A stretch of 64,000 bases of DNA from an uncultured Bacilli bacterium (GCA_905235635.1 CAJOMC010000005.1:14264-78263), one strand, 5' to 3'. Numbered from the stretch's first letter, positions 9,037 to 45,070 are shown. Notes: generated by a model from the sequence alone, not told the origin. Program-made: numbers and translations.

Positions 9037-10197
9037 ATGATTATTACAATTTGTAGTGATGTGCTTGGAAAAGAAAACAATGGTACCACAATAGCCACAA
9101 TGAACTTAATTAGGTACTTAGCTTCTAAAGGCCATGAGGTTAGAGTTGTTGCGCCTAGTATGGAAAAAGTAAAGAACGTAAAACTTTATAGATTAGATGT
9201 AAGACATTTAGGAAAAATACTTGATAATATGCTTAAAAATAATCAGGTGGTTCTCGCTAAATATGATGAAGAATTATTTAAGAAGGCTATAGATGGAGCT
9301 GATATAGTAGATATCCCCTTTTCTATAGGGGTATCTGAAAAAGTAATAGATATGTGCAAAGAAAAAGGGATTCCTGTCGTTGCATCTATGCATCTTCAAG
9401 CCGAAAATGTGTCATCACATTTTGGGCTTATAGATTCAAAATTCGTCAATAAATTAATATACAATAGCTACTATAAAAGAATTTATTCGAAGGTAGATTC
9501 TGTCCATTTTCCGACTCAATTTTTAAAGAATATATTTGAATCTAGTATTCAAAAAACTATTAAATATCCCTATGTTATTTCAAATGGTGTAAGTGATAGA
9601 TTTGAAAGAATAAACACAGTTAAACCAAAGGAACTTGAGGATAAATTTATAATACTTTCAACCGGAAGAATATGTACCGAAAAGAATCAAAAAACATTGG
9701 TAGATGCGATTTCTAAATCTAAATACAAAGATATGATTAAAGTGATATTCGCTGGAGATGGCCCAGATAAAGAATCACTACTTAAAAAGATTAATAAAAA
9801 GAAGATAGATGCGAATATTGAGTTTTTCTCAAGAGATGAAATAGTTAATGTCATTAATTACTCTGATCTTTATGTCCACACTGCTATTATTGATCTTGAA
9901 TCTATCGCATGTCTTGAAGCACTTAAATGTGGATTAACCCCTATATTTATGGACTCTAAGAGATCAGCTCCTCATCTTTTCGCTATTGATGATAGGTCTT
10001 TATCTAAATATAAAGACTCAAGTGATCTCGCAAAAAAGATAGATTATTTCGTTGAACATAAGGAGGAAAGGTTAGAACTATCAAGATTATATGAAAATAA
10101 GATGAAAAATATGAGTCAAAAAGAATGTATGGAAAAGATGGAAGAGATGTTTATGGAGACAATAGATAGATATGGAAAAGAAAGTAATCTATTATAA
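9037..10197 (+). CDS. GT4-family glycosyltransferase (probable membrane glycolipid synthase)
   Basis: The preferred start is ATG 9037, preceded by AAAGGAGG (9021-9028); the tracked TTG at 8977 has no RBS. It shows the GT-B/GT4 pattern ('ENNGTTIATMNL', 'FAGDGPDKESL', 'ESIACLEALKCG'). Confidence 0.75.
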   Translation: MIITICSDVLGKENNGTTIATMNLIRYLASKGHEVRVVAPSMEKVKNVKLYRLDVRHLGKILDNMLKNNQVVLAKYDEELFKKAIDGADIVDIPFSIGVSEKVIDMCKEKGIPVVASMHLQAENVSSHFGLIDSKFVNKLIYNSYYKRIYSKVDSVHFPTQFLKNIFESSIQKTIKYPYVISNGVSDRFERINTVKPKELEDKFIILSTGRICTEKNQKTLVDAISKSKYKDMIKVIFAGDGPDKESLLKKINKKKIDANIEFFSRDEIVNVINYSDLYVHTAIIDLESIACLEALKCGLTPIFMDSKRSAPHLFAIDDRSLSKYKDSSDLAKKIDYFVEHKEERLELSRLYENKMKNMSQKECMEKMEEMFMETIDRYGKESNLL

Positions 10198-23787: not shown

Positions 23788-24759
23788 TTATTCTTTATTT
23801 TTAGCGTTTTTCTTGGCTAATCTATTATCTTTCTTAGCTTGCTTTTTTGCAGCTTTAGCTTCGAGTTTGTTTTTCTTCCATAACGCATTATGATCTAGTG
23901 GTACATCCTCATCAGCAAGTGGATCAAGTAGAACTTTTGGATTCTTTAATATTCTAAGTAGCATTCTAAATGAATTCGCAAAATAGTATCCATCGCAGAA
24001 TCTTTCATCTGATACAAAACTAATTGGCATTACAATCTTAGATGTAACTTCACCAGTTTCTTTATTAAGCGATAACACTTCCTTATCAACACCAGTAGAG
24101 AAGAACATACCTGTTGTACCAAAGTTATAGATATGATGGTGTAGTGGTGGAAGTTTAATTGACCTCATATCAGTGATAAAGAATGTGGTGTGGAATGGTG
24201 ATGCTTCAAGCACGCCTTTTGGTAGTGCACCAATCTTATCTAGGAACTTAACAAATGATACAAGCGGTATCGTGAAAAATGGTGATGCACTACAAATTGC
24301 ATCCGTTAACTTATCTGTCGCATTCTTCATTCCTTCATGCTTTACCTTTTTAAATTCAGTTTCCATTACATCAGCTATCTCTTGCAATGATTCTTTACCT
24401 GTAAAATGCATCTTGATTGATGTTTCATCAGATTCTTTGCCTCTCTTTAAAGATTTTTGAGCAACTATAGAGAAGGCAATGTCATTGTGTTGATAAATCT
24501 TTCTATTGAAGATGAACCTATTTAATGCTGGTCTTAAACAAATTACTCTTATAATTGATGCGGTTAAAATTTCTGTATATGAATAAACTCTTCCAGTTAA
24601 TTCTTTTTGTTCTTTAATGAATTCATTCCAAGGTTCTAGGTCAACTTCAAATTGATTCCAGTTCATTGCATCATTTCTTTTAGGCATTATCATTGGAATG
24701 ATATTATAAAATCCTTTTAAATGTTTAACTCTTTTTCCATCTGATCTATATCCGAACAT
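23788..24759 (-). CDS. CAT/E2-fold acyltransferase-like protein (2-oxoacid dehydrogenase acyltransferase catalytic-domain-like, no lipoyl domain)
   Basis: The C-terminal 'SFVSDERFCDGYYFANSFRMLLRILKNP' aligns with the E2 'DHRxxDG...F...L..lLE.P' block. It ends in a Lys/Ala-rich tail. Confidence 0.5.
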   Translation of the reverse strand: MFGYRSDGKRVKHLKGFYNIIPMIMPKRNDAMNWNQFEVDLEPWNEFIKEQKELTGRVYSYTEILTASIIRVICLRPALNRFIFNRKIYQHNDIAFSIVAQKSLKRGKESDETSIKMHFTGKESLQEIADVMETEFKKVKHEGMKNATDKLTDAICSASPFFTIPLVSFVKFLDKIGALPKGVLEASPFHTTFFITDMRSIKLPPLHHHIYNFGTTGMFFSTGVDKEVLSLNKETGEVTSKIVMPISFVSDERFCDGYYFANSFRMLLRILKNPKVLLDPLADEDVPLDHNALWKKNKLEAKAAKKQAKKDNRLAKKNAKNKE

Positions 24760-30642: not shown

Positions 30643-30716
<74 letters not shown>

Positions 30717-31015: not shown

Positions 31016-31771
31016 ATGAAGTTTACTTTCAAAAATAATATATTGAATATAGTTATAGGATCAATACTAAGTGTACTTGTTGTTATACAGCTAATTGGCA
31101 TATTTGTAAAAGAATTAAATTATGTTGGTGCTGCACTAAAATATATAATAGGTGCATTTACTTTAGTAGTTGCTGGATTTAATCTTGGTCGTCACCTTAA
31201 AAAAGAGAACAAAACTGCGGAAACTATAGTATGGTTATTAGGAAATCTTATCATCATTGTTCTTGCTATACTTCTTATGTTTTTAAAACAAGAAGAAGAC
31301 AAGGTATGGTTAACTCCATCTATAGTCGCAGGTATTGATATTTATCTTGAAGGTGTAATGCTAATTATCACATCAACCATATCTAATAAAACAAACATTG
31401 CTTCTTCACTAGTTGGTATATTATTTATTTCTCTAGGTATGATTTGTTTCTTCAAACTAGTGGATAATATCCTAATATGGGGATTTACCGGAGCTTTACT
31501 TATCATTGGTTTAATTTTCCTATTAGATGGTATATATGGAATACGTCAAAAGAAATCAGAAGTAGAAAAGCCTAAAAAGAAGGCAGTGACAAAAGAACCG
31601 GATGATATAAAAGAAGTTATATTAGAAGATTTGGATGAAGCAGAATCTAGTCAGGCTACACCACAAGAAATACCTATTAAAGACGTTGAAACTGTCACAC
31701 ACAAAGAGAGTGATAAGAAGGAAATTGAAAAAGAAATTACTAATCTACTCGAACATAGTGATGATGAATAA
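31016..31771 (+). CDS. Integral membrane protein (about 6 TM helices, possibly DUF308/HdeD-like) with a charged C-terminal tail
   Basis: It has six hydrophobic segments, with repeated 'G..liilG...l..G' patterns. The C-terminal ~80 aa are Lys/Glu/Asp-rich. An AAGAGGAGA RBS lies upstream. Confidence 0.55.
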   Translation: MKFTFKNNILNIVIGSILSVLVVIQLIGIFVKELNYVGAALKYIIGAFTLVVAGFNLGRHLKKENKTAETIVWLLGNLIIIVLAILLMFLKQEEDKVWLTPSIVAGIDIYLEGVMLIITSTISNKTNIASSLVGILFISLGMICFFKLVDNILIWGFTGALLIIGLIFLLDGIYGIRQKKSEVEKPKKKAVTKEPDDIKEVILEDLDEAESSQATPQEIPIKDVETVTHKESDKKEIEKEITNLLEHSDDE

Positions 31772-31784
31772 ATATTGATATAAT

Positions 31785-31816
31785 AAAAGAGAAGTTCGTT
31801 GAAGAACTTCTCTTTT
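31785..31816. terminator. Bidirectional terminator between convergent genes
   Basis: AAAAGAGAAGTTC / GAACTTCTCTTTT form a 13-bp perfect stem with a 6-nt loop and A/T runs on both sides. Confidence 0.8.
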
Positions 31817-34610
31817 ACTTATCTTTCCTGCCGTTTAATACATAAACAGAAGGATGATCATATTTATTGTTTATTTCCTTAATAAGCGTTTTATAGCGAG
31901 TCTTGTAGTCATAAATGAATGCATTTTTCTCAAATTTATAACTATTAATTGAATCCTTTCCAGCTTTAAGTATTGGTCCGTATGCATTTTTTGATAAAGA
32001 GTAAACTATATCATTTTTTTCATTTAGTGCGGAACTAAATTCATCGAAATCATCTATGATAGCTTTAGTATAAGAATCCATACATTGCTTTAACGCGATT
32101 ATACTATCATCGAATTCATTCTTTGAATATAAATTATTATTGTCTAAAACTTGTTTATAATAATTAATTGTTTCAATTGATGAATTATTTATTTCATCAA
32201 TACTATTTAAAGTATTAGAAGAAACATCTTCCATACTTAAAAATTGAAGCTTATTTTCATTATCAATACTTTCAATTTTAGTAGTTAATTCTTGATGTAG
32301 AGAATTAATCTCTTTTTGATGTCTTAAAGAAGTCCTTCTATATGATATATTATAATCATCATCGTTATATTTTGAAGAAATACGTCTAATCTCATCAATT
32401 ACAGGAGTTAATTCTTTATCAAGAATATTATCGATTCTTTCTAGACCATTATTGTAATCTGATTGATACTTATTATATATATCATTAAAATTGAAAGAAT
32501 CTTTTGAGTTAAGAGTATTTACTATACTATCTATTTCAGATTCAGCAATTTTAATGGATTTTGTCGCTTCAAGAAGAGAGTGATTATGTATTTTATTGGC
32601 GATGTCTAAATTATCAATGTAAACTTCTATTCTTTCATCTATATCGCTTCTTGAGTAATTGATATCAGTATCTTTCTTAATGATTTTTATAATATCATTC
32701 ACGCTGTCGTTATAGTCAGTTAATATTTCATTTGTTTCTTCGGTCATTCTATCTTTAAAAGAAGCAGGTTTTTCTCTAACGGCATCTAGTTTTAAAAGAA
32801 TTGCGTTTAGTCTTATTTCTTTAATTTGATTTAGTTCTTTTATTTCATCAAGGAACTTACCCACTAAAAAGTTGATCCTATATTCAGAGAAACCATTGGA
32901 TACATTTTTTTCCTTGGTTAATATCTCAATTCTTAGTTCTAACTCTTTTTGAGCGAGTTCGATAAGTTCACTCGCAGATGTTATCCTATGTTTCATAAAA
33001 GCATTTAAGAATTCAAAACTAGATAGTGCAAATAACTCCTCTCTTGCCTTAGTCTGTTCTAAAAGAGCGGTTTGAGAGCTTTTAATAATATCAAGTGATT
33101 TCTTATTAACGTTATATGAATTAATTATCTTTTCGTATTCAAATTTTTTAGGAAGAAGATCTATGTCTCTAGATTTATGTGCTAAAGAATTTGATAAGAA
33201 GAGGATGGCTTTTTGGATGACATACGATCTATGAACTTTATTTAATTTAATCTCATAGTCTAAAACTGCTTGGAATTTTAAGTCAGAGGCATAGATTTCA
33301 TTTCTATAAATATTAAATAATTTATAGTTTTCATTTGCGCTTTTAATAAGATTAAAGATTTCTCTTTCCATGTTTACTTTAGCGACATTTAGGCTAAAAT
33401 TTAATTCATTTAGTAAGAGAGAAGATTTATATTTGTATGTAATGAGAACTCTTTTTAAAGTGTCAAAAAGTTCTAATTGTTTAAGAGAGAATTCAAGTGT
33501 ATGTTTAAGCCTATTATCAACCGATTCCTCAAATAATAAATCTAATAAATCGCTATATTTTTTAAAGAATATGATGTTTTCGATGATAGCGGAGCCTTTA
33601 AATTTTTCATCCTTTATGAGTAATTTCTTAAATAAGTTTTGATTTCTGTATCTTAGAAGAAGTTCACGATATTCTTTTTCATTAGCTTCTTCTAAAGATA
33701 AATATTTTAAATAGAGATCGTGATGATATGATTTAAAGATTTCAGTAATACAGTTTTCTAGTTCCTCATCGTTAAAAGCATTCTCAAGTTTAATAAATAA
33801 TTTTTTGTTTAGAGGGTTTTCTTTAATTTCTTTTTTAATAAGCTTAAGAGTATTCTTTTTGCTTTCAAAGAAATCCTTCTTAAAACCTAATGTTTCTATA
33901 AGTATTCTCTCATATTTCTTAATCTCTTTATCTGACAATTCTTTAAACTCTTGATAGAGAGACTCTTGAGTTTCAACGTATTTATTTTTGATATCATTTT
34001 CTATTTTCTCAAGGTTTTCATATAGGAAGTTTTCATCATTTAATATATCTTTATATGAAAGCTGAGAAATATTATTACTATCTAACTCTTCCTTATATGC
34101 TTTATTATCTTCAATTAGTTTAATTTTATAGTCATTATATAATAAAGTATATAATTCTTGAAGTTCTTTAATTTTAGTTATAATACCTTCAAAATCAGCA
34201 CTTAAATGTTCATAGTAATTTTTAATAATGGATGAATATTGATCGAGGGATTTCCCTAAAACTTGGGAAATACTATCATTTGTGTTAATAGAAGAAGATT
34301 CAAGTTCTTTAGTTTTTAATACTAAACTTTCTATTTTTTCAAGAGTAGTATTGTGATAGTTATCTAAAGAAGTTTCAAGGGAATCTAGATTTTCAATCAT
34401 AAAATTCATAAGGTCATTTTTAATTAGATTTAGTGAATTAAAATATTCAACCTTTAAGTCTTTCATTTCATGTGTTAATCTATCATCTTGAGTTTCTATT
34501 TTTTCTTCAACACCTTTAATAAGTTCTTCAAGTGAAGAAACGTCTTCTTTAATTAAATCAAAAGAAGCCTTAGATTTTTCTAAGGTTACATATATTATTA
34601 ATTTCATCAT
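31815..34610 (-). CDS. Giant coiled-coil protein of unknown function (931 aa as tracked; the true 5' end is probably upstream, see 34570..34698)
   Basis: It is continuous heptad-rich, low-complexity, helical-looking sequence rich in E/K/N/I/L/S. I see no P-loop, signal peptide or TM segment by eye. Confidence 0.6.
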   Translation of the reverse strand: MMKLIIYVTLEKSKASFDLIKEDVSSLEELIKGVEEKIETQDDRLTHEMKDLKVEYFNSLNLIKNDLMNFMIENLDSLETSLDNYHNTTLEKIESLVLKTKELESSSINTNDSISQVLGKSLDQYSSIIKNYYEHLSADFEGIITKIKELQELYTLLYNDYKIKLIEDNKAYKEELDSNNISQLSYKDILNDENFLYENLEKIENDIKNKYVETQESLYQEFKELSDKEIKKYERILIETLGFKKDFFESKKNTLKLIKKEIKENPLNKKLFIKLENAFNDEELENCITEIFKSYHHDLYLKYLSLEEANEKEYRELLLRYRNQNLFKKLLIKDEKFKGSAIIENIIFFKKYSDLLDLLFEESVDNRLKHTLEFSLKQLELFDTLKRVLITYKYKSSLLLNELNFSLNVAKVNMEREIFNLIKSANENYKLFNIYRNEIYASDLKFQAVLDYEIKLNKVHRSYVIQKAILFLSNSLAHKSRDIDLLPKKFEYEKIINSYNVNKKSLDIIKSSQTALLEQTKAREELFALSSFEFLNAFMKHRITSASELIELAQKELELRIEILTKEKNVSNGFSEYRINFLVGKFLDEIKELNQIKEIRLNAILLKLDAVREKPASFKDRMTEETNEILTDYNDSVNDIIKIIKKDTDINYSRSDIDERIEVYIDNLDIANKIHNHSLLEATKSIKIAESEIDSIVNTLNSKDSFNFNDIYNKYQSDYNNGLERIDNILDKELTPVIDEIRRISSKYNDDDYNISYRRTSLRHQKEINSLHQELTTKIESIDNENKLQFLSMEDVSSNTLNSIDEINNSSIETINYYKQVLDNNNLYSKNEFDDSIIALKQCMDSYTKAIIDDFDEFSSALNEKNDIVYSLSKNAYGPILKAGKDSINSYKFEKNAFIYDYKTRYKTLIKEINNKYDHPSVYVLNGRKDK

Positions 34611-34698
34611 ATAGAGATTTTATATTTGATTTGAGGTTATCTTTGTAGCTTGAAAGAAGATCTAGAGTTTCATTTATTTTGTTTTCCAAATCACTCAT
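34570..34698 (-). CDS. 42-codon ORF, probably the displaced N terminus of the 931-aa coiled-coil gene (frame break)
   Basis: Its ATG overlaps the TAA of the upstream 1113-aa gene (TAATG). The peptide MSDLENKINETLDLLSSYKDNLKSNIKSLYDEINNI... has the same coiled-coil character. It overlaps the tracked start (34610) of the 931-aa ORF in another frame. Confidence 0.4.
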   Translation of the reverse strand: MSDLENKINETLDLLSSYKDNLKSNIKSLYDEINNICNLRKI

Positions 34699-37600
34699 TA
34701 TTTTTTCTCCATCTTGTCTTTAAATTCAGTGATTAAACTATTGATTCTATTTTCCATATTATTTAAAGAATCATTTAAATCTTCGTTAAGTTTTTCGTTT
34801 AATGAAGATAAGTGTTCTTTAAATGCGGAAATTGGAATAGAAACATTATCATATTTATTTAAAGTATCCGCAATAACATTATTAAACTTCTCCTCAAATT
34901 CGATTAAATTATCTGCCTTAAGATTCTCGTATTTTTCTATAATACTATTTTTCCTGTATTCAAACGAATCTTTTAATCTAATATTTTCAGAGTTAAGTTC
35001 GTCAAAATATGCGGCTTTATTTTGATCGTGGTCTATTATTCTTTTTTCGAGTTTATTCTTATTATCTTGTTTAAATGTTTCGATAGAATCCCAGAGCTTT
35101 AATGAATTATCTTTCATTAAATCGAAATATTTATTTCCTTCATCCAAGATCTTTTGTTTTTCTTCTTGGAAGTTGCCGTTTATATTTTCTATAACCCTAG
35201 ATAAATCTGTAGTTTTATCGTGAGATGAACTAATATTAGAAGCATTCTCTTGTTTCTTTTCGCCTATTCTTTCATCTCTTCTCTTAATATATGCTAAATA
35301 TGTAGAGTTAATAATATTTTTAATATCTTCATTACCAGTTTCTCTTTGTTTGATTATTCTAGTCTTTAAAGTATTAATGTGGTTAATTTTTTCTTTATAA
35401 TCATTTTCAATAGTTTTTACTGTCCTAAGATATAGTTCCTGATAATCAGATAATCTCTTTGCTAGTCTTTCTGAATCGTTTTCTTTAGCTATATCAATTG
35501 TATCTAAATTATCAAGGAATGGAGAAATATCAGAAGAAGTTTTTTCTATCTCTTTAACTAATAAGTATTCTTTTAAATCTTCTAATACAAAGACGTTTCT
35601 AATATATTCACTATATGAGATTGGTGCATTTTTCTTTAATTCTTTATTAAATGCCTTTTTAAGCATCTTAACACTTTCATTTGCACTTCTTAAAAGATAT
35701 TTATATGCTTGATGTAAAGAAGAAGTGTTTTTAGATTTTATAAATAGTGATCTAAAAGTTTTATAGTCTTTATATAATTCCTTTTTATTGTATGCTTTAG
35801 TAAATGATTTGTTGTATATTTTATTTAGAATATTATCTAAATCAATTACTAAAGTATCAAGTATATAATATACCTGATTTAATATTTGGTCTGTATCAAC
35901 CTTTTTCACGTATTCATTAAATTCAGTTTTAGGTGAAAGATCAAGTAATGAAGACTTACATTTATCTAGAGCCATAACAAATAAAGCATGTGCTCTTTTT
36001 TCATTAACAAGTGATGCTCTATATTCTTCTATTACTTTAGCCTGGCTCTCTTTAATGGATTCCCTAATATGATCCATCTTAGATTTAAGAGATTCTTTTT
36101 CGGTTCTAATGAATGGATATATACGTTTCTTAGCCTCATCTGATTCCTTAAGAACTTTTATCTTATTAGCCTCAAAGTTATTTCTCTCTATTTCTAATAC
36201 ATTATTTAAATAACGCATTTTATTTGTGAGTTGTTCATCGAGGATTTCTATACCTTTATTATATCTTTCCATTAGATCTTCAAATTGTTCATTTCTTGAG
36301 ATTGCTTCAAGATATGCAATTTCTAAAATCTTTTGAATTTGAATTTGAGTCTTTAGTTTTTCTTCAGCATCTTCATCTCTATCTTTAATTTTTACTATTT
36401 TAGAGATGTTTTCAAGCCTAGTATATGCAGCCATATAGTCGCATTTAAGCATTTCTATATTTTTGTTTGTATCTAGTATCTTTACTTCATTATTTAATCT
36501 ATTTTTAACAAGAAGAACATCAATCTCATAGTCTTTTTTAAGCAACACTAGATCGCACTTGGAATTCATGATTTCAAGTTCTGCTTTTGCGGTTTCTTCA
36601 AGTTCTTTTCTCTTGATGTCATATTCTATTTTCTTTATTTCTGTTTCATCATCAATAGTTAAATATTGTCTTCTTAAATCAAGGAGAGAAAGTCTTAATA
36701 ATTCATCGTTTGTTAGTAACTTGAATGATAATAAATCTAATTCTTTATTTTGATTAACATTATCTTCAATATAAGTAAGATATTCTTTTAAAGAAACTAT
36801 CTTAGCATCGAGACCGAGACTTTCATAGCTTTTCTTGTAATAATAAAGTAAATCTTTAGTTCTTTTAGCATCTTCAGTTAAATTACCTAGTGCGTTCTTT
36901 TGATAATTAAGAATTTCAATAATAGATGAGAAGGTATTAAGCATTAGCGATTTACCATTATCTAAGAAATTATTATAAGATTCAAATAGATGGTCTCTTG
37001 CATCTTTTAATATAGAAGAATATCTATTTAACTCTTCATTTTGTTTATTTAGTAAATCGAGTTCAATAGAATATTTGATTAATAGTTTTTGATTATTAGT
37101 GGTAATGAAGTTAATTAAAGATGATTTTTGTTCAAGAAGAAGAGATTTTTCTTTATTAGTAGCTTTCTCTATTAATGAATCATAATATTTGTTTAAAGCC
37201 TCTATATCAGCATCTTTTTTCTTATTTAATTCCTCAAGACCTTTCTTGATTGATTCACATTCATCAGAGTTATCTTTTTTATTTTTAATAATTATATTAA
37301 TAAATGTATTAAAAGAAGACCTAATAGAATCAAATTTAGAGACATATTTACTTGTGTCACTTAAAAGCTTTTTAGCATCTTCAAAACACTCTATGTAGAT
37401 ATCAGAAAGATGACGAGATGACTCAATAGAAGTAAGTGTAGCATTTTCTGTTAAAGAAGAAGTATAGTTTTTGAATTCTTCAAGGAATGTGATTAGCTTC
37501 TTAATGTCTAAAGCGTGCTTTTCTGCGTTCTTATAGAATTCAAGGTTCTTCAAAATACTTTCTTTGGCATTAAAAATAGTATAAGTATAAACTTCCTCTT

Positions 37601-38039
37601 CCTTATCTATTTTGTTTTCGATTTGTCTTTTGTGAGCGAGAGGCCTTGATTTTGCCTCATATAATGTTCTAACAAAAGAATGCCTAATACGTTCAAGAAG
37701 AACTTCTTCAAATTCGATTCTTGATTCTAAGTCTTGTTTCTCTTTGTAATATTCATCTAACAAAGCAATAAGCTCAACATTTGCTTTTTCATTTAAAGCT
37801 TCGTAATCCTTAAAATATTTTTGAAGAATGATAACCCTATTTTCATCATGTTTTTGAAGTCTTGTCTCATAATCTTCATAAATATCTCTATAATCGTCAC
37901 TTTGCTTTTCTTTTAAATCAAAAAGATCCTTCTCAAGAGATGAGATGGTTTTGTCAAAATATCTTTCTACTTCGGCAGGGCTATAACCAAAACCCTCTAG
38001 TAGATTCATGTATACAGATTTTTTCTCGTTGTTATTCAT
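34698..38039 (-). CDS. Giant coiled-coil protein of unknown function (1113 aa)
   Basis: It is heptad-rich helical sequence along its whole length, with no enzymatic motif, signal peptide or TM segment seen. It is the first gene of a two-gene minus-strand unit. Confidence 0.6.
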   Translation of the reverse strand: MNNNEKKSVYMNLLEGFGYSPAEVERYFDKTISSLEKDLFDLKEKQSDDYRDIYEDYETRLQKHDENRVIILQKYFKDYEALNEKANVELIALLDEYYKEKQDLESRIEFEEVLLERIRHSFVRTLYEAKSRPLAHKRQIENKIDKEEEVYTYTIFNAKESILKNLEFYKNAEKHALDIKKLITFLEEFKNYTSSLTENATLTSIESSRHLSDIYIECFEDAKKLLSDTSKYVSKFDSIRSSFNTFINIIIKNKKDNSDECESIKKGLEELNKKKDADIEALNKYYDSLIEKATNKEKSLLLEQKSSLINFITTNNQKLLIKYSIELDLLNKQNEELNRYSSILKDARDHLFESYNNFLDNGKSLMLNTFSSIIEILNYQKNALGNLTEDAKRTKDLLYYYKKSYESLGLDAKIVSLKEYLTYIEDNVNQNKELDLLSFKLLTNDELLRLSLLDLRRQYLTIDDETEIKKIEYDIKRKELEETAKAELEIMNSKCDLVLLKKDYEIDVLLVKNRLNNEVKILDTNKNIEMLKCDYMAAYTRLENISKIVKIKDRDEDAEEKLKTQIQIQKILEIAYLEAISRNEQFEDLMERYNKGIEILDEQLTNKMRYLNNVLEIERNNFEANKIKVLKESDEAKKRIYPFIRTEKESLKSKMDHIRESIKESQAKVIEEYRASLVNEKRAHALFVMALDKCKSSLLDLSPKTEFNEYVKKVDTDQILNQVYYILDTLVIDLDNILNKIYNKSFTKAYNKKELYKDYKTFRSLFIKSKNTSSLHQAYKYLLRSANESVKMLKKAFNKELKKNAPISYSEYIRNVFVLEDLKEYLLVKEIEKTSSDISPFLDNLDTIDIAKENDSERLAKRLSDYQELYLRTVKTIENDYKEKINHINTLKTRIIKQRETGNEDIKNIINSTYLAYIKRRDERIGEKKQENASNISSSHDKTTDLSRVIENINGNFQEEKQKILDEGNKYFDLMKDNSLKLWDSIETFKQDNKNKLEKRIIDHDQNKAAYFDELNSENIRLKDSFEYRKNSIIEKYENLKADNLIEFEEKFNNVIADTLNKYDNVSIPISAFKEHLSSLNEKLNEDLNDSLNNMENRINSLITEFKDKMEKK

Positions 38040-38353
38040 CGCTAAACTTCTATAATGTATTATAGCATATGGTCATTATAAATAAAACATTAAATGTTTT
38101 AATTTTTATTTGACAAAAAAATAAAAAAGTAGAGAAAAAACGAAAATATTTACAGATTTAGTAATGCTTATATTTTGATTCAAATTATTAAATAAAGCAC
38201 ACGTATTTGACTTTATAGTCTTAATTAAGCTTTTGATATAAATAGTTAAAATTATATGTTTTTTACACTATAAACAAATTTTGACGATTTATGGGTCCAT
38301 AAATCTCTATTTAATAATAGAGAGTTATGATATAATTTAAAAAGGAGATTTAT

Positions 38354-39347
38354 ATGAGCACAAATAAGGAATTAGAAACATATAGAAGTCAGGTTGAGGA
38401 AGAACAATTTTTAAGACCTCAAACATTAAGAGAATATGTTGGTCAGGAACAAGTGAAAGAGATGCTAGGAGTATCAATTATGGCTGCTAAACAAAGAAAA
38501 GAGCCAATTGATCACGTCTTACTTTATGGTCCTCAAGGTCTCGGAAAGACAACTTTAGCTCAAGTAATTGCTAATGAGATGGGTGCAAATATTACTGTTA
38601 TTAGTGGTCCTGCAATCGAAAAGACAGGCGATTTAGCGGCTATTCTTTCTGCGCTTCAACCTTATGATTGCCTATTTATAGATGAAATACATAGATTGCC
38701 AAAAGTTGTATCAGAAACACTATATTCCGCAATGGAAGATTTTGTGATTGATATAGTTGTTGGTCGTGATAGTGATGCTCATACAATTAGGCTAGATCTT
38801 CCACCTTTTACGCTTATTGGCGCAACAACAACTTATGGTATGCTAACTGGGCCTTTACGTGATAGATTTGGCTCAACTTATAAACTTGATTTCTACACTG
38901 TTGATGAACTTAAAAAGATTTGTGAAAGAACTTCAAGAATTTATGGAAATCCGATAGATTCTGATTCATCATTTGAAATCGCAAGGCGTTCTCGTGGTAC
39001 GCCAAGAATAGTAAATAGAATATTTAAAAGAGTTCGTGATTTTGCTGATGTATATAATGGTGGTGCTATCAATTTAGATATCACAAACAGAACGCTCACA
39101 AATTTAAATATTGATGACCAAGGTCTTGATCAAAAAGACAGAGATTATCTTGAAACCATTATCTCTCATTTTGGCGGAGGACCAGTTGGTGTTGATAATC
39201 TCGCATCAAGTATGTCTGAAGATAGACTCACTATTGAAAATGTGTATGAACCTTATTTAATCAAAGAAGGCTATATTCAGCGTACATCAAGAGGACGTAT
39301 CGCTACTCCAAAAGCCTATAAACACATGAAAAAGGATTTGTTTAGTT

Positions 39348-39358
<11 letters not shown>
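38354..39358 (+). CDS. ruvB: Holliday junction branch migration helicase RuvB
   Basis: It has '[16 protein letters not shown]', Walker A '[11 protein letters not shown]', 'FIDEIHRL' and 'RGTPRI'. Confidence 0.95.
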
Positions 39359-41511
<2,153 letters not shown>

Positions 41512-41523
41512 GAGAGTCGTGCT

Positions 41524-42666
41524 ATGTATAATCAATATGATCAATTTTCACAACATGCTGTAATAAAAGTAGTCGGTGTCGGAGGTGGTGGCGGTTCAGC
41601 CGTTGATAGAATGGTTGAAAACGATGTATCAGGCGTTGAATTTGTTGCTATCAATACCGATAGTCAAGCTTTAAAAAAGTCAAAGGCAGATGTTCGTATT
41701 TTACTTGGAAGAAAAACAACTGAAGGTTTAGGTGCTGGAGCCGACCCAGATGTAGGACGTCGTGCTGCTGAAGAAGCTGCAGATGAAATAAGAGATAACT
41801 TGTCAGGTGCTGACATGGTTTTTATCACCGCTGGTATGGGTGGTGGAACAGGTTCAGGCGCATCTCCTGTAGTTGCTAAAATAGCACGTGAAATGAAATG
41901 CTTAACTATTGGTGTTGTCACAAAACCATTTAGTTTTGAAGGTCCAAAAAGAATGTCAGTTGCACTTAATGCTATTGAAGAATTAAGACCTTATGTTGAC
42001 GCATTAATCGTTATTCCTAACGATAGACTTTTAATCACTAGTGGTGGTGAAGATATCTCTATCTTTGATACATTTAGAAAAGCAGATAACGTCTTAAGAT
42101 CTGCTGTCCAAGGTATTACTGAGATTATCAATGAAGAAGGACTTATTAATGTTGACTTCGCCGATGTTAGGACAACTTTAAAAGATAAAGGTACTGCACT
42201 TATGGGCATTGGTATGGCATCAGGTGATAACAGAGGTATTGTTGCCGCAAACCTCGCAATTAGGTCTCCTTTACTTGAAACATCAATAGATGGCGCAACA
42301 AGCGCAATTGTTAATATTACCGCATCAACTAAGGTAACTATTAACGAAATTCAAAGTATCATTCATGAAATTCAAAACTCATCATCTAAAACTCTTGATA
42401 TTATATGGGGTCAAGCAATTAATAAAACATTTGATGATCAAATTGTTGTCACAGTAATTGCGACAGGTTTTGCCACAGACCCACTTAAAAATATCAATGA
42501 TAAAAATGAATATAAACCAGAACTAAGCACTCAAGATGATGACGACATTTTATCTGGCTTAACTGGTAAAGGTGGAAAGAAAAAAATATATAGAAGAGAT
42601 AAAAAATCTAAAGATAAAAAGAACGCAGAATATAATTCACTTCCTGAATGGATAAGCAAGAAATAA
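41524..42666 (+). CDS. ftsZ: Cell division protein FtsZ
   Basis: It has 'IKVVGVGGGGGSAV', 'GLGAGADP' and the tubulin signature 'GMGGGTGSGASPV'. The C terminus is basic and ends in an 'SLPEWISKK' peptide. Confidence 0.95.
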   Translation: MYNQYDQFSQHAVIKVVGVGGGGGSAVDRMVENDVSGVEFVAINTDSQALKKSKADVRILLGRKTTEGLGAGADPDVGRRAAEEAADEIRDNLSGADMVFITAGMGGGTGSGASPVVAKIAREMKCLTIGVVTKPFSFEGPKRMSVALNAIEELRPYVDALIVIPNDRLLITSGGEDISIFDTFRKADNVLRSAVQGITEIINEEGLINVDFADVRTTLKDKGTALMGIGMASGDNRGIVAANLAIRSPLLETSIDGATSAIVNITASTKVTINEIQSIIHEIQNSSSKTLDIIWGQAINKTFDDQIVVTVIATGFATDPLKNINDKNEYKPELSTQDDDDILSGLTGKGGKKKIYRRDKKSKDKKNAEYNSLPEWISKK

Positions 42667-42667
42667 A

Positions 42668-45070
42668 ATGGAACTAGTAAAAGCATCAACTTATTTGGAA
42701 AATTTAGATATATCACTCGTTAGAAGACTTGAAAGATTAGTCTCTATTTACCCAAGCAAAAAGAAGATAGAAGAGGCAAGAAAACTAATAAATATCTATA
42801 TAAATAAATCTAAAGTAGCCTATTTCTATCAAGCTTTAACATCTCCATCATATAAAGAAAATGAATTCACAAAGGAAATTGTTGCGATTTTATCTTATGG
42901 AAAAGGTGACCTGTTCTGTGATTATCTTCTCCAAAAACATGCTTATTACGCTTATGGATGTTATAACTATAATGTTATGGCTGAAATCAAAAAAGCTTTA
43001 AAAGAATTAATAAAGGATAGAAAATCCTATGATGCAGTGTATCTATATAGTGATTTACTAATTCTTGAGGGAAATCCTAAAACTGAAGAAGAAGCGTTTG
43101 ATAATTTCTTGGTTCTTGCAAGAGAAGGCCATGCATATTCATGTCTTTCCCTCGCGTTAATTATTATCGCATCAGGCGAAGAATATAAAGCTTCAAGTGG
43201 CGCTATTGTGCCATTCTTGTCCTTTGCTGCACAAAGCGGCATCAAACAAGCTCAAATAGTACTTCTTGATGTACTAAAAAATGGTTTTGATGATATGGTT
43301 CAAAAGGACCCTAGACTCGCAGAACAATTTGAAAAAGCATTCGAGAATCAAAGCTTTGATACATCACAACTAATATTTGAAAAATATTATAGAGAGGGTG
43401 CTTTCTTTAATGAATCAAATGAAAAAGCCGTTGAATTATTACCTTTAATTGGTAGAACTCCTAATAATAATCATTATGGACTAAGTCTTTATCGTAAATA
43501 CCTTAAAGAAAAAGAAGATGGTCTTGATTATAAAGATTCATTAAATAAAGCATATAAGGAACTATATTCTACCTATAAATATCAAGACTACGATACTCTT
43601 GTTGCACTATCTAACATTTTCTTTAATGAGGAACCCTACTTAGATAGAAAACTGGGATTTAATCTACTTCTTGATGCATATAGGAAATACCCAAATCCAG
43701 ACATTTCCTATACCCTCTATAGATTAATTAAATCAAGTGATGAATATAAAGACCATAGCGATATGCTTCCTGAACTTTCATATCGTTCCTTCTATTATTA
43801 CATAAAGAAGGATATTAACCCATTCATAGATCATTACTATAATATGGCATCACCTTCTGATGGATATAAATATGCGAGAAAATTGCTTAGTTTTATTAAG
43901 AAATATGAGCCAGAGTTCTCTCACGCAGAACTAGCATATATTTATCTTAAAGAAGGCAAAAAGAGAAAAGCTAAAAAAGAATTCAATAAAGTTAGAAACT
44001 ATGTAGATGTCTTAAAATATCCTTATACTTACGCTAAATTATATGAGAATCTTCCTTCTGGTGAACTAGATTTTCTAAAGGCTATTAATCTCTATAAAGC
44101 TGCATCGGTAATAGGAAACTCAAAAGCTTCTTATACCTTAGGTAGATATTATGAAAAAGGCCTACTTATCGCTAAAAACTTAGAAGAGTCCGTAAATTAT
44201 TATAAACTTGCCGCAAGGCAGGGCATTACTGATGCATATTTTAAAGCGGGTTATGTTTTAATTATGTTAGGCCACGATAAAGCTGGTTTAGCTGAACTTG
44301 AAACTGGTGCTTCTCTCTCAAATAGTAAATGTGCTAACGCATTAGGTGACCTATATTTTTATGGTCAATATGTTGAAAAAGATTACACTAAGGCTGCTCA
44401 TTGGTATAGTGAAGGATCAAAAAATAAAGATCCTAGATGTATGTTTAAACTAGGAATAATATTTAAAGATGGCCTTGGTTATAAGAAGGACTTAGAAAAA
44501 GCTAGAGAATTATTTGAATTATCTAAAAAATATGGATATAGAGATGGCCTATTCAAACTATTTGGTAAACATCTTTATGAAAATAATGATAAAGAATGTT
44601 TAAGATATTTGAATCTTGCTTATGAGGCAGAAGGTGATAGAGAATCATTAGTTTTACTTTCTAAAATTTATTCTGAAGGAAAAATCACAGGAAAAAGACC
44701 ACTTAAAGCCAGAAAGTATTTATTACTCTCAAAAGCAACAAATGATCCTGAGTCCTTATTTAAATTAGGGTTAAAGACATCTGGTAAATCGAGAAAACTT
44801 AAATATTTTGAAGACGCATATATGTATGGATACACTAAAGCTATATCCTATGCGGGTATTTGGGCATATAAAAATAAGGAATATCAAAAGGCATATTCAT
44901 ATTTATCTAATGGTTTATCAGAAGAAATTCCTGAAACATATTATATATATGCATTACTACACATGAATAATGTGATAAAGAATTTAAATTCAAAAGATGC
45001 GCTTTATTATATGAAAAAAGCTGCGGAGCTTAAATATCAAAAAGCAGTGTTATTTTTAAGAGGTGAATAG
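42668..45070 (+). CDS. Sel1-like repeat (SLR/TPR-class) protein, 800 aa
   Basis: It has multiple SLR-type units, for example 'ASYTLGRYYEKGLLIAKNLEESVNYYKLAARQG', 'ANALGDLYFYGQYVEKDYTKAAHWYSEGS' and 'MFKLGIIFKDGLGYKKDLEKARELFELS'. It starts 1 nt after the ftsZ stop. Confidence 0.7.
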   Translation: MELVKASTYLENLDISLVRRLERLVSIYPSKKKIEEARKLINIYINKSKVAYFYQALTSPSYKENEFTKEIVAILSYGKGDLFCDYLLQKHAYYAYGCYNYNVMAEIKKALKELIKDRKSYDAVYLYSDLLILEGNPKTEEEAFDNFLVLAREGHAYSCLSLALIIIASGEEYKASSGAIVPFLSFAAQSGIKQAQIVLLDVLKNGFDDMVQKDPRLAEQFEKAFENQSFDTSQLIFEKYYREGAFFNESNEKAVELLPLIGRTPNNNHYGLSLYRKYLKEKEDGLDYKDSLNKAYKELYSTYKYQDYDTLVALSNIFFNEEPYLDRKLGFNLLLDAYRKYPNPDISYTLYRLIKSSDEYKDHSDMLPELSYRSFYYYIKKDINPFIDHYYNMASPSDGYKYARKLLSFIKKYEPEFSHAELAYIYLKEGKKRKAKKEFNKVRNYVDVLKYPYTYAKLYENLPSGELDFLKAINLYKAASVIGNSKASYTLGRYYEKGLLIAKNLEESVNYYKLAARQGITDAYFKAGYVLIMLGHDKAGLAELETGASLSNSKCANALGDLYFYGQYVEKDYTKAAHWYSEGSKNKDPRCMFKLGIIFKDGLGYKKDLEKARELFELSKKYGYRDGLFKLFGKHLYENNDKECLRYLNLAYEAEGDRESLVLLSKIYSEGKITGKRPLKARKYLLLSKATNDPESLFKLGLKTSGKSRKLKYFEDAYMYGYTKAISYAGIWAYKNKEYQKAYSYLSNGLSEEIPETYYIYALLHMNNVIKNLNSKDALYYMKKAAELKYQKAVLFLRGE

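Follow-up and report, generated by a model that had tools for sequence, protein, structure and literature searches.

Two adjacent giant proteins with a non-heptad hydrophobic periodicity as a candidate rod or scaffold pair in a narrow clade of uncultured Bacilli

What might two adjacent giant genes do whose products are predicted to consist of almost nothing but helix? This question is raised by a locus on the minus strand of a 64,000-nucleotide stretch of DNA from an uncultured Bacilli bacterium (GCA_905235635.1, CAJOMC010000005.1:14264-78263), which we analyzed at its full length and refer to as the window. Open reading frame 1 (ORF1, 34698-38039) is followed there by ORF2 (31815-34698), and an original prediction, made from the sequence alone, had described their products as headless, heptad-rich coiled-coil proteins with a possible structural role. 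Our analysis agrees with the predicted helicity of both proteins, replaces the heptad by a periodicity of 3.62 residues, and leads us to the tentative view, to which we assign a probability of about 0.45, that they are a lineage-specific, co-translated pair whose products assemble, as a heteromer, into an elongated rod or scaffold.

ORF1 is intact and encodes a protein of 1113 amino acids (132 kDa, pI 5.6) that is predicted to be all-alpha; an identical protein, P0001, is present in public assemblies. Its TAA stop codon (34700-34698) has one base in common with an ATG (34698-34696), and the expected TAATG junction was thus located at 34696-34700. The frame opened by this ATG comprises 42 codons (34698-34570) and ends in a TAA at 34572-34570, and the long downstream ORF (34610-31815, minus strand, 931 amino acids) lies in a different frame. 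A DNA alignment of the window with L001, L002 and L005 placed a 5-nt deletion (AGAGG/GAGGA) at 34590-34591 on the minus strand, within ORF2: L001 and L002, sister assemblies of the same organism, carry five additional bases (AGAGG) between 34591 and 34590, and the aligned junction is otherwise identical. The continuous ORF2 of both assemblies corresponds to protein P0007 (962 amino acids, 113 kDa, pI 5.1), which is the same as in the window apart from the indel. Since L001 and L002 encode this unbroken protein, the ~960 amino acids originally predicted are the size of the intact product. The prediction of two adjacent genes therefore held for ORF1 and its 1113 codons, but ORF2 is split in the window by a deletion that may represent either a strain variant or an error of assembly or polishing.

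At third codon positions, both genes have a G+C content of 0.19-0.20, the same as their neighbors, and we therefore regard them as native. Furthermore, the pair has been retained in at least nine divergent lineages at identities down to 23-33%, which argues that ORF1 and ORF2 are real genes under selection. In every lineage, the ORF1 stop and the ORF2 start overlap or are at most 9 nt apart, which speaks for translational coupling of the two genes. One oddity at this junction concerns L003, where the public call of the ORF1 homologue (1125 amino acids) runs through an in-frame TGA (10002-10004). This TGA overlaps the ORF2 ATG as ATGA, and under code 11 the protein stops at the overlap; the read-through suggests that gene calling on this contig used genetic code 4.

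Both proteins are rich in K, L, E, N and I and poor in glycine (~1%) and proline (~0.6%). Models generated with AlphaFold 2 from shallow alignments and assigned with DSSP were helical throughout, in good agreement with the composition and with the helical, E/K/N/I/L-rich nature first ascribed to the pair. The predicted local distance difference test (pLDDT) score was 51 for ORF1 and 47 for ORF2, and because of this low confidence we drew no tertiary inference from the models. On checking for the features said to be missing, we found no Walker A motif ([AG]xxxxGK[ST]), no transmembrane (TM) segment and no LPxTG motif in either protein, the maximum 19-residue hydropathy being 0.9, as well as no signal peptide or anchor and no secretion system nearby. 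BLASTP of each protein against itself revealed no internal repeats. ORF1 and ORF2 are thus predicted to be cytoplasmic, acidic and almost wholly alpha-helical.

The hydrophobic power spectrum of both proteins peaked at 3.62 residues with a power of ~1.05, compared to ~0.3 at 3.50, which is three-fold lower. The family-averaged autocorrelation was strongly positive at lags 7, 11, 18, 29, 40, 47, 58, 69 and 87, close to zero at lag 21 and below zero at lags 28, 35 and 42; the heptad lags had a mean z of -0.5, and neither protein showed a heptad signal past lag 14. The coiled-coil arms of SbcC, encoded in the same window and used as a control, gave the canonical 7/14/21 pattern with a peak at 3.54, and no long-range pattern of this sort was found in the Sel1, Lon and MutS2 controls. 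The two proteins are thus not heptad-rich, as had been assumed, and a canonical heptad coiled coil of the crescentin type was rejected because the 3.5-residue periodicity is not sustained.

Phase tracking at 29/8 (3.625) showed the hydrophobic seam to be in register over residues 2-172, 576-751 and 820-1113 of ORF1 and over residues 1-226, 591-690 and 778-958 of ORF2; coherent stretches cover ~84% of each protein. The seam is ~120-150 degrees wide and consists of L, I, Y and F; Ala accounts for just 2-6% of the core angular bins. In the central cores (ORF1 437-575 and ORF2 424-517), the strongest signal was at 2.22 residues, modestly over the 95th percentile of shuffled sequences. One possible source is the aliased second harmonic of 3.62, produced by helices with two hydrophobic faces; another is a beta-like alternation. 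The pitch of an undistorted helix is 3.63, and periodicities close by give essentially no supercoil (PMC4786415). Since the 3.62 seam corresponds to this pitch, we read the rods as straight bundles. Dimeric hendecads require small (Ala) cores and otherwise give way to higher oligomers (PMC9858780); as the core of the pair is bulky and not Ala-rich, each bundle would contain more than two helices.

Both proteins diverge far faster than the product of the neighboring ruvB. While RuvB identity to the window was 96, 90, 83, 70 and 63% in L005, L004, L003, L008 and L009, the corresponding values were 71, 48, 33, 30 and 27% for ORF1 and 62, 44, 30, 28 and 23% for ORF2. Despite this rapid divergence, the alignments of ORF1 (seven lineages) and ORF2 are nearly gap-free, with a gap fraction near zero. 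Conservation peaks in the N-terminal 60-120 residues, in a central core and in C-terminal patches. The core of ORF1, its most conserved part, spans residues 390-650 (36090-36872, minus strand). Within it, residues 437-575 (36315-36731) are devoid of the 3.62 seam and contain an invariant YLTxD motif, and an invariant IERxxF motif lies just C-terminal of this stretch (residues 617-622). In ORF2, the core covers residues 424-630 in the numbering of the intact protein (32814-33434, minus strand), with the highest conservation at 481-630 and invariant LDYEI..HR and KxRxE motifs; residues 424-590 carry no significant 3.62 seam.

Scans of the window proteins against Pfam, NCBIfam, PHROGs and PADLOC gave no significant match for ORF1 or ORF2, Pfam scans of the family members (7 for ORF1 and 18 for ORF2) gave nothing at or near threshold, and the best match in PDB sequence and profile searches with four alignments was no better than E = 0.04. 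The expectation that homology-based annotation would leave the pair blank is thereby borne out, and neither an enzymatic domain nor a phage tape-measure protein, both named in advance as findings that would speak against the prediction, was detected. Among 5.8 billion clustered proteins, ORF1 had three matches including itself, and ORF2 had five. An exhaustive hidden Markov model search of 1.84 billion representatives, made with the ORF2 profile only, returned 23 proteins and brought to light 13 new full-length ORF2 relatives, all of 952-971 amino acids. At least four proteins were recovered by a word-indexed homology search with the 18-sequence profile, and pattern scans added five loci from the JGI metagenomes and two from 185,579 species genomes. 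One of the latter two belongs to a metagenome-assembled genome (MAG) labeled "Bacillales bacterium Tb.RUG.524"; the other is the 2.6-kb contig L007 (JAILNJ010000049.1), which was binned into a MAG labeled Gammaproteobacteria. L007 holds ORF2 together with the 6-TM locus described below, is very like the contig of the "Bacillales" MAG (L006), and is probably mis-binned. Overall, ORF1 and ORF2 constitute a new sequence family of very narrow distribution, which appears to be limited to a small group of uncultured low-GC bacteria from the gut or rumen.

Wherever the flanking DNA reaches far enough (window/L001, L005, L004, L003, L014, L016/L017, L008, L009 and L018), ORF1 and ORF2 are transcribed away from a divergent ruvB-queA-tgt cluster. 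In L012, three hydrogenase genes separate ruvB from the pair. The gene after tgt is ftsZ in the window, L003, L008, L017 and L018, and ftsW-murG-murB take its place in L009, the most distant relative. Since ftsW, murG and murB flank the locus in L009, this lineage is walled, and the suggestion of a Mollicute-style cytoskeleton of wall-less cells gains no support. On the other side, the pair faces a convergent gene (31016-31771, plus strand) for an orphan membrane protein of 251 amino acids with six TM segments (6-TM protein), for which we found no family match. Its charged C-terminal tail is mostly acidic, with a basic stretch followed by an acidic one, and it carries conserved ILED motifs as well as, in the window subclade, LLEH motifs. 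Syntenic homologues (29-70% identity) occur in L004, L005, L006/L016 and L007, i.e., only in the window and L006/L007 subclades, and in L010, L011 and L012/13 unrelated genes stand in its place. The 6-TM protein was therefore discarded as an obligatory third subunit and is better described as a facultative neighbor.

Whether ORF1 and ORF2 are related to each other was addressed by pairwise comparison. BLASTP gave E = 0.6, and hhalign gave a probability of 1.5% with shallow alignments (4+4 sequences) and of 23% with deeper ones (7+18 sequences; E = 8.6e-4), the latter matching ORF1 324-609 with ORF2 227-545 colinearly. Both proteins also have the rod-core-rod layout and the 2.22-residue core signal. 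Remote paralogy is therefore possible on these comparisons but was not demonstrable.

Taken together, the gene pair with its coupling, synteny and distribution and the helicity, periodicity and conservation of its products lead us to infer the following arrangement. ORF1 and ORF2 would be produced together from one operon and would co-assemble as an elongated heteromeric rod or scaffold. Each chain would consist of a conserved N-terminal segment, long rods, a seam-less conserved core, more rod segments and, at the C terminus, another conserved patch. Along the rods, the seam of bulky residues (L, I, Y and F) would let the helices pack straight, with essentially no supercoil, into bundles of more than two each, and would be kept in register with partner helices across hundreds of residues. 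Having to hold so long and straight a seam in register would explain why there are almost no indels and why the length is constant. As originally proposed, a structural role, be it cytoskeleton-like or as a scaffold, is still the most economical reading; the suggested tie to the chromosome or to division has nothing behind it beyond the position by ruvB-queA-tgt(-ftsZ).

Several observations weigh against a heteromeric rod or scaffold. The structure models, with pLDDT values of 47 and 51, do not allow tertiary or quaternary structure to be inferred, and Foldseek searches of the PDB with both models gave only generic long-helix matches (E > 0.07). The sole argument for hetero-assembly is the coupling of the genes, and the charge cross-correlation of ORF1 with ORF2, computed for parallel and antiparallel orientations, showed nothing beyond the spread over offsets. 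In addition, the position by ruvB may reflect phylogenetic inertia within a narrow clade, and ORF2 is frameshifted in this assembly; if the deletion were real, the strain would lose the conserved N terminus. Finally, a straight 3.6-residue seam is equally expected of an amphipathic helix lying on a surface.

This last point leads to an alternative that we consider improbable, namely, that ORF1 and ORF2 bind lipid at the membrane surface through amphipathic helices, by a mechanism like that of apolipoproteins, perilipin or PspA, and dock there via the tail of the 6-TM protein. Indeed, in-plane amphipathic helices show an unsupercoiled 3.62 seam, and the 6-TM homologue stays adjacent to the pair in two subclades though the genes beyond it change. 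There were also weak sub-threshold matches, in Pfam to the Apolipoprotein and Phasin families and among PDB sequences to apolipophorin-III and apoA-IV, but all of these family matches fall far under threshold. With pI values of 5.1-5.6, both proteins are net acidic, a disadvantage on anionic bacterial membranes; the narrow hydrophobic face (just ~120-150 degrees) is aromatic or bulky and resembles a bundle core; and the 6-TM protein is missing beside the pair in the three lineages named above (L010, L011 and L012/13). Exchangeable apolipoproteins and the 11-mer helices of perilipin share a near-3.6 periodicity over long helices with our pair, which differs from them in lacking 11/22-mer repeats, in being acidic and in having a narrower, aromatic-rich seam. 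Membership in the apolipoprotein family itself was rejected, as PF01442 (Apolipoprotein A1/A4/E) matched 2 of the 18 members below threshold (best E = 0.056) and BLASTP revealed no internal repeats. We give the same low credence to a chromosome or division tether, that is, an SMC/Rad50-like hairpin without an ATPase or a Z-ring or nucleoid scaffold tied to ruvB and ftsZ. The divergent adjacency to ruvB-queA-tgt(-ftsZ), found wherever the contig extends there, would fit such a tether, and the conserved ends and center with variable arms between them recall SMC-type hairpins. SMC, Rad50 and SbcC likewise have long helical arms, conserved ends with a central element and a strongly conserved length. 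However, ORF1 and ORF2 have no Walker motifs and thus no recognizable ATPase head, no hinge and no zinc hook, none of their family members matched the Pfam entries SMC_N, AAA_23 or SbcC, no DNA-binding motif was detected, and SbcC, with its periodicity of 3.54 against 3.62, is already encoded in the window. Conservation of the ruvB-queA-tgt cluster is widespread among Firmicutes, which means that the pair could be linked to it passively, and the linkage is interrupted by the hydrogenase genes in L012 and lacks ftsZ in L009, where ftsW-murG-murB are found instead. A relationship to EzrA found no backing either, there being no Pfam EzrA match and no N-terminal TM anchor in the two proteins.

Less probable still is a surface fiber, adhesin or toxin component that is exported non-classically and diversifies under pressure from hosts or phages. 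The very fast divergence relative to the housekeeping neighbors would be accounted for, and flagellar junction proteins, ClyA and XaxB were among the generic Foldseek matches, but these matches are non-significant and come from low-confidence models. The absence of a signal peptide, TM segment, anchor and nearby secretion system also speaks against export, as do the housekeeping gene context and a strictness of length and seam phase that is unlike variable surface antigens. A structural protein of a phage or mobile element, such as a tape-measure protein, or an anti-phage defense component resembling the tail of ZorA is effectively refuted. The large helical proteins are tape-measure-like in size, and PADLOC returned weak ZorA matches to ORF1 (19.6 and 18.7 bits) in the tail part of the profile. 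ZorA of the Zorya system was nevertheless rejected, since the MotA/ExbB-type TM domain is absent and these ~19-bit matches are confined to the profile tail. A tape-measure protein was rejected as well: there was no PHROG match, a search of 2.9 million viral contigs with the ORF1 profile found no relatives, and the pair keeps a constant chromosomal position amid housekeeping genes across lineages, with a native third-position G+C content.

Among characterized systems, Scy and FilP of Streptomyces, rods built on hendecad/51-residue repeats (CC51), are the nearest analogues in mechanism and rod type. They are very long bacterial rods (Scy has more than 1000 residues), and two rod proteins act together. 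The scy and filP genes are adjacent. Their hydrophobic periodicity is ~3.64 rather than 3.5 (PMC3718342, PMC9858780), close to the 3.62 of ORF1 and ORF2, which do have a long non-heptad (~3.6) rod. Unlike Scy and FilP, however, ORF1 and ORF2 have a core of L, I, Y and F with 2-6% Ala instead of an Ala-rich one, show no tandem repeat at the sequence level, are similar in size without being demonstrably paralogous, and belong to a clade of Bacillota MAGs and not to Actinobacteria. Members of the DivIVA/FilP/Scy group are marked by a DivIVA-like N-terminal domain (PMC9858780), and no Pfam match to DivIVA was found at E <= 1 in the 7 ORF1 or 18 ORF2 members. With neither this N terminus nor an Ala-rich core nor a tandem repeat, the pair was not assigned to that group. 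Coiled-coil-rich proteins and crescentin-type, intermediate filament-like proteins are also domain-less, helical and cytoplasmic, and filaments or scaffolds have been proposed or shown for them (PMC7002697, PMC6599971). These proteins are heptad based and much shorter, whereas ORF1 and ORF2 have ~1000 residues each and are non-heptad.

The sequences flanking the pair contain candidate regulatory signals. ORF1 and ruvB are separated by the predicted AT-rich divergent spacer of 314 nt (38040-38353), and the terminator thought to be shared with the convergent membrane-protein gene was found as a hairpin with a 14-bp stem (31784-31817), which overlaps the ORF2 stop codon and would act bidirectionally. 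An extended -10 element, TGCTATAAT, lies on the minus strand at 38059-38067, ~20 nt before the ATG of ORF1, and its consensus TGnTATAAT is kept in four lineages (the copy of L003 was read by eye and is shifted in the alignment). The palindrome AAAACATTTAATGTTTT covers the -35 region (38084-38100, minus strand) and precedes the -10 element in three of these four lineages (window, L005 and L004). Judging from consensus and footprint, TGCTATAAT is a putative promoter and AAAACATTTAATGTTTT a putative operator. No LexA/Cheo box was seen by eye in the spacer. At its other end, a perfect 8-bp inverted repeat, TCTCTATT-N4-AATAGAGA (38304-38323), stands directly upstream of the TGATATAAT element preceding ruvB; both stems are kept in L005 and L004, with a variable loop, and the repeat may be an operator. 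A further spacer block, ACGTGTGCTTTAT (~38180-38200, minus-strand reading), is conserved between the window, L005 and L004.

As for the surroundings, no ruvA is found directly upstream of ruvB in the plus-strand ruvB region (38354-45070), and ftsZ (41524-42666) lies directly behind ruvB-queA-tgt, outside any dcw-type cluster in the window. It is followed by a gene for an 800-amino-acid Sel1-repeat protein, in the same order as in L003. A single tRNA gene (30643-30716, plus strand), the sole Rfam match in the 64-kb window, is located between glpK and the 6-TM gene. On the minority strand, an ORF of 323 amino acids (23788-24759, minus strand) has no Pfam or NCBIfam match, and gene calls for it exist in L001 and L005 as well.

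Carried further, the proposal of a heteromeric rod or scaffold gives a more specific picture, which we regard as speculative and rather unlikely as a whole. ORF1 and ORF2 would be an unrecognized cytoskeletal or scaffold heteropolymer made of two chains of ~1000 residues, either unrelated or anciently duplicated, in which straight multi-helix bundles with a 29/8-type seam are joined by cores of two-faced helices. It would serve as a ruler or scaffold of defined length in a Bacilli-like gut and rumen clade of uncultured bacteria, possibly linked to division, since ftsZ is three genes away.

Two practical consequences follow from this work: the deposited assembly is flagged for the frameshift in ORF2, and K/E/N/I/L-rich sequences that have been labeled "coiled coil" by eye need to have their periodicity checked. 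If the pair does form a rod or scaffold, it would represent a new bacterial family of such proteins, with no sequence relationship to DivIVA/FilP/Scy, crescentin or SMC. With an undistorted-helix seam running, repeat-free, over some 80% of the pair's more than 2000 residues, it would be a test case for the theory of non-heptad coiled coils and likewise for structure predictors, which were unsuccessful here. In addition, it would provide a first handle on the cell organization of an uncultured low-GC lineage of Bacillota from animal guts.

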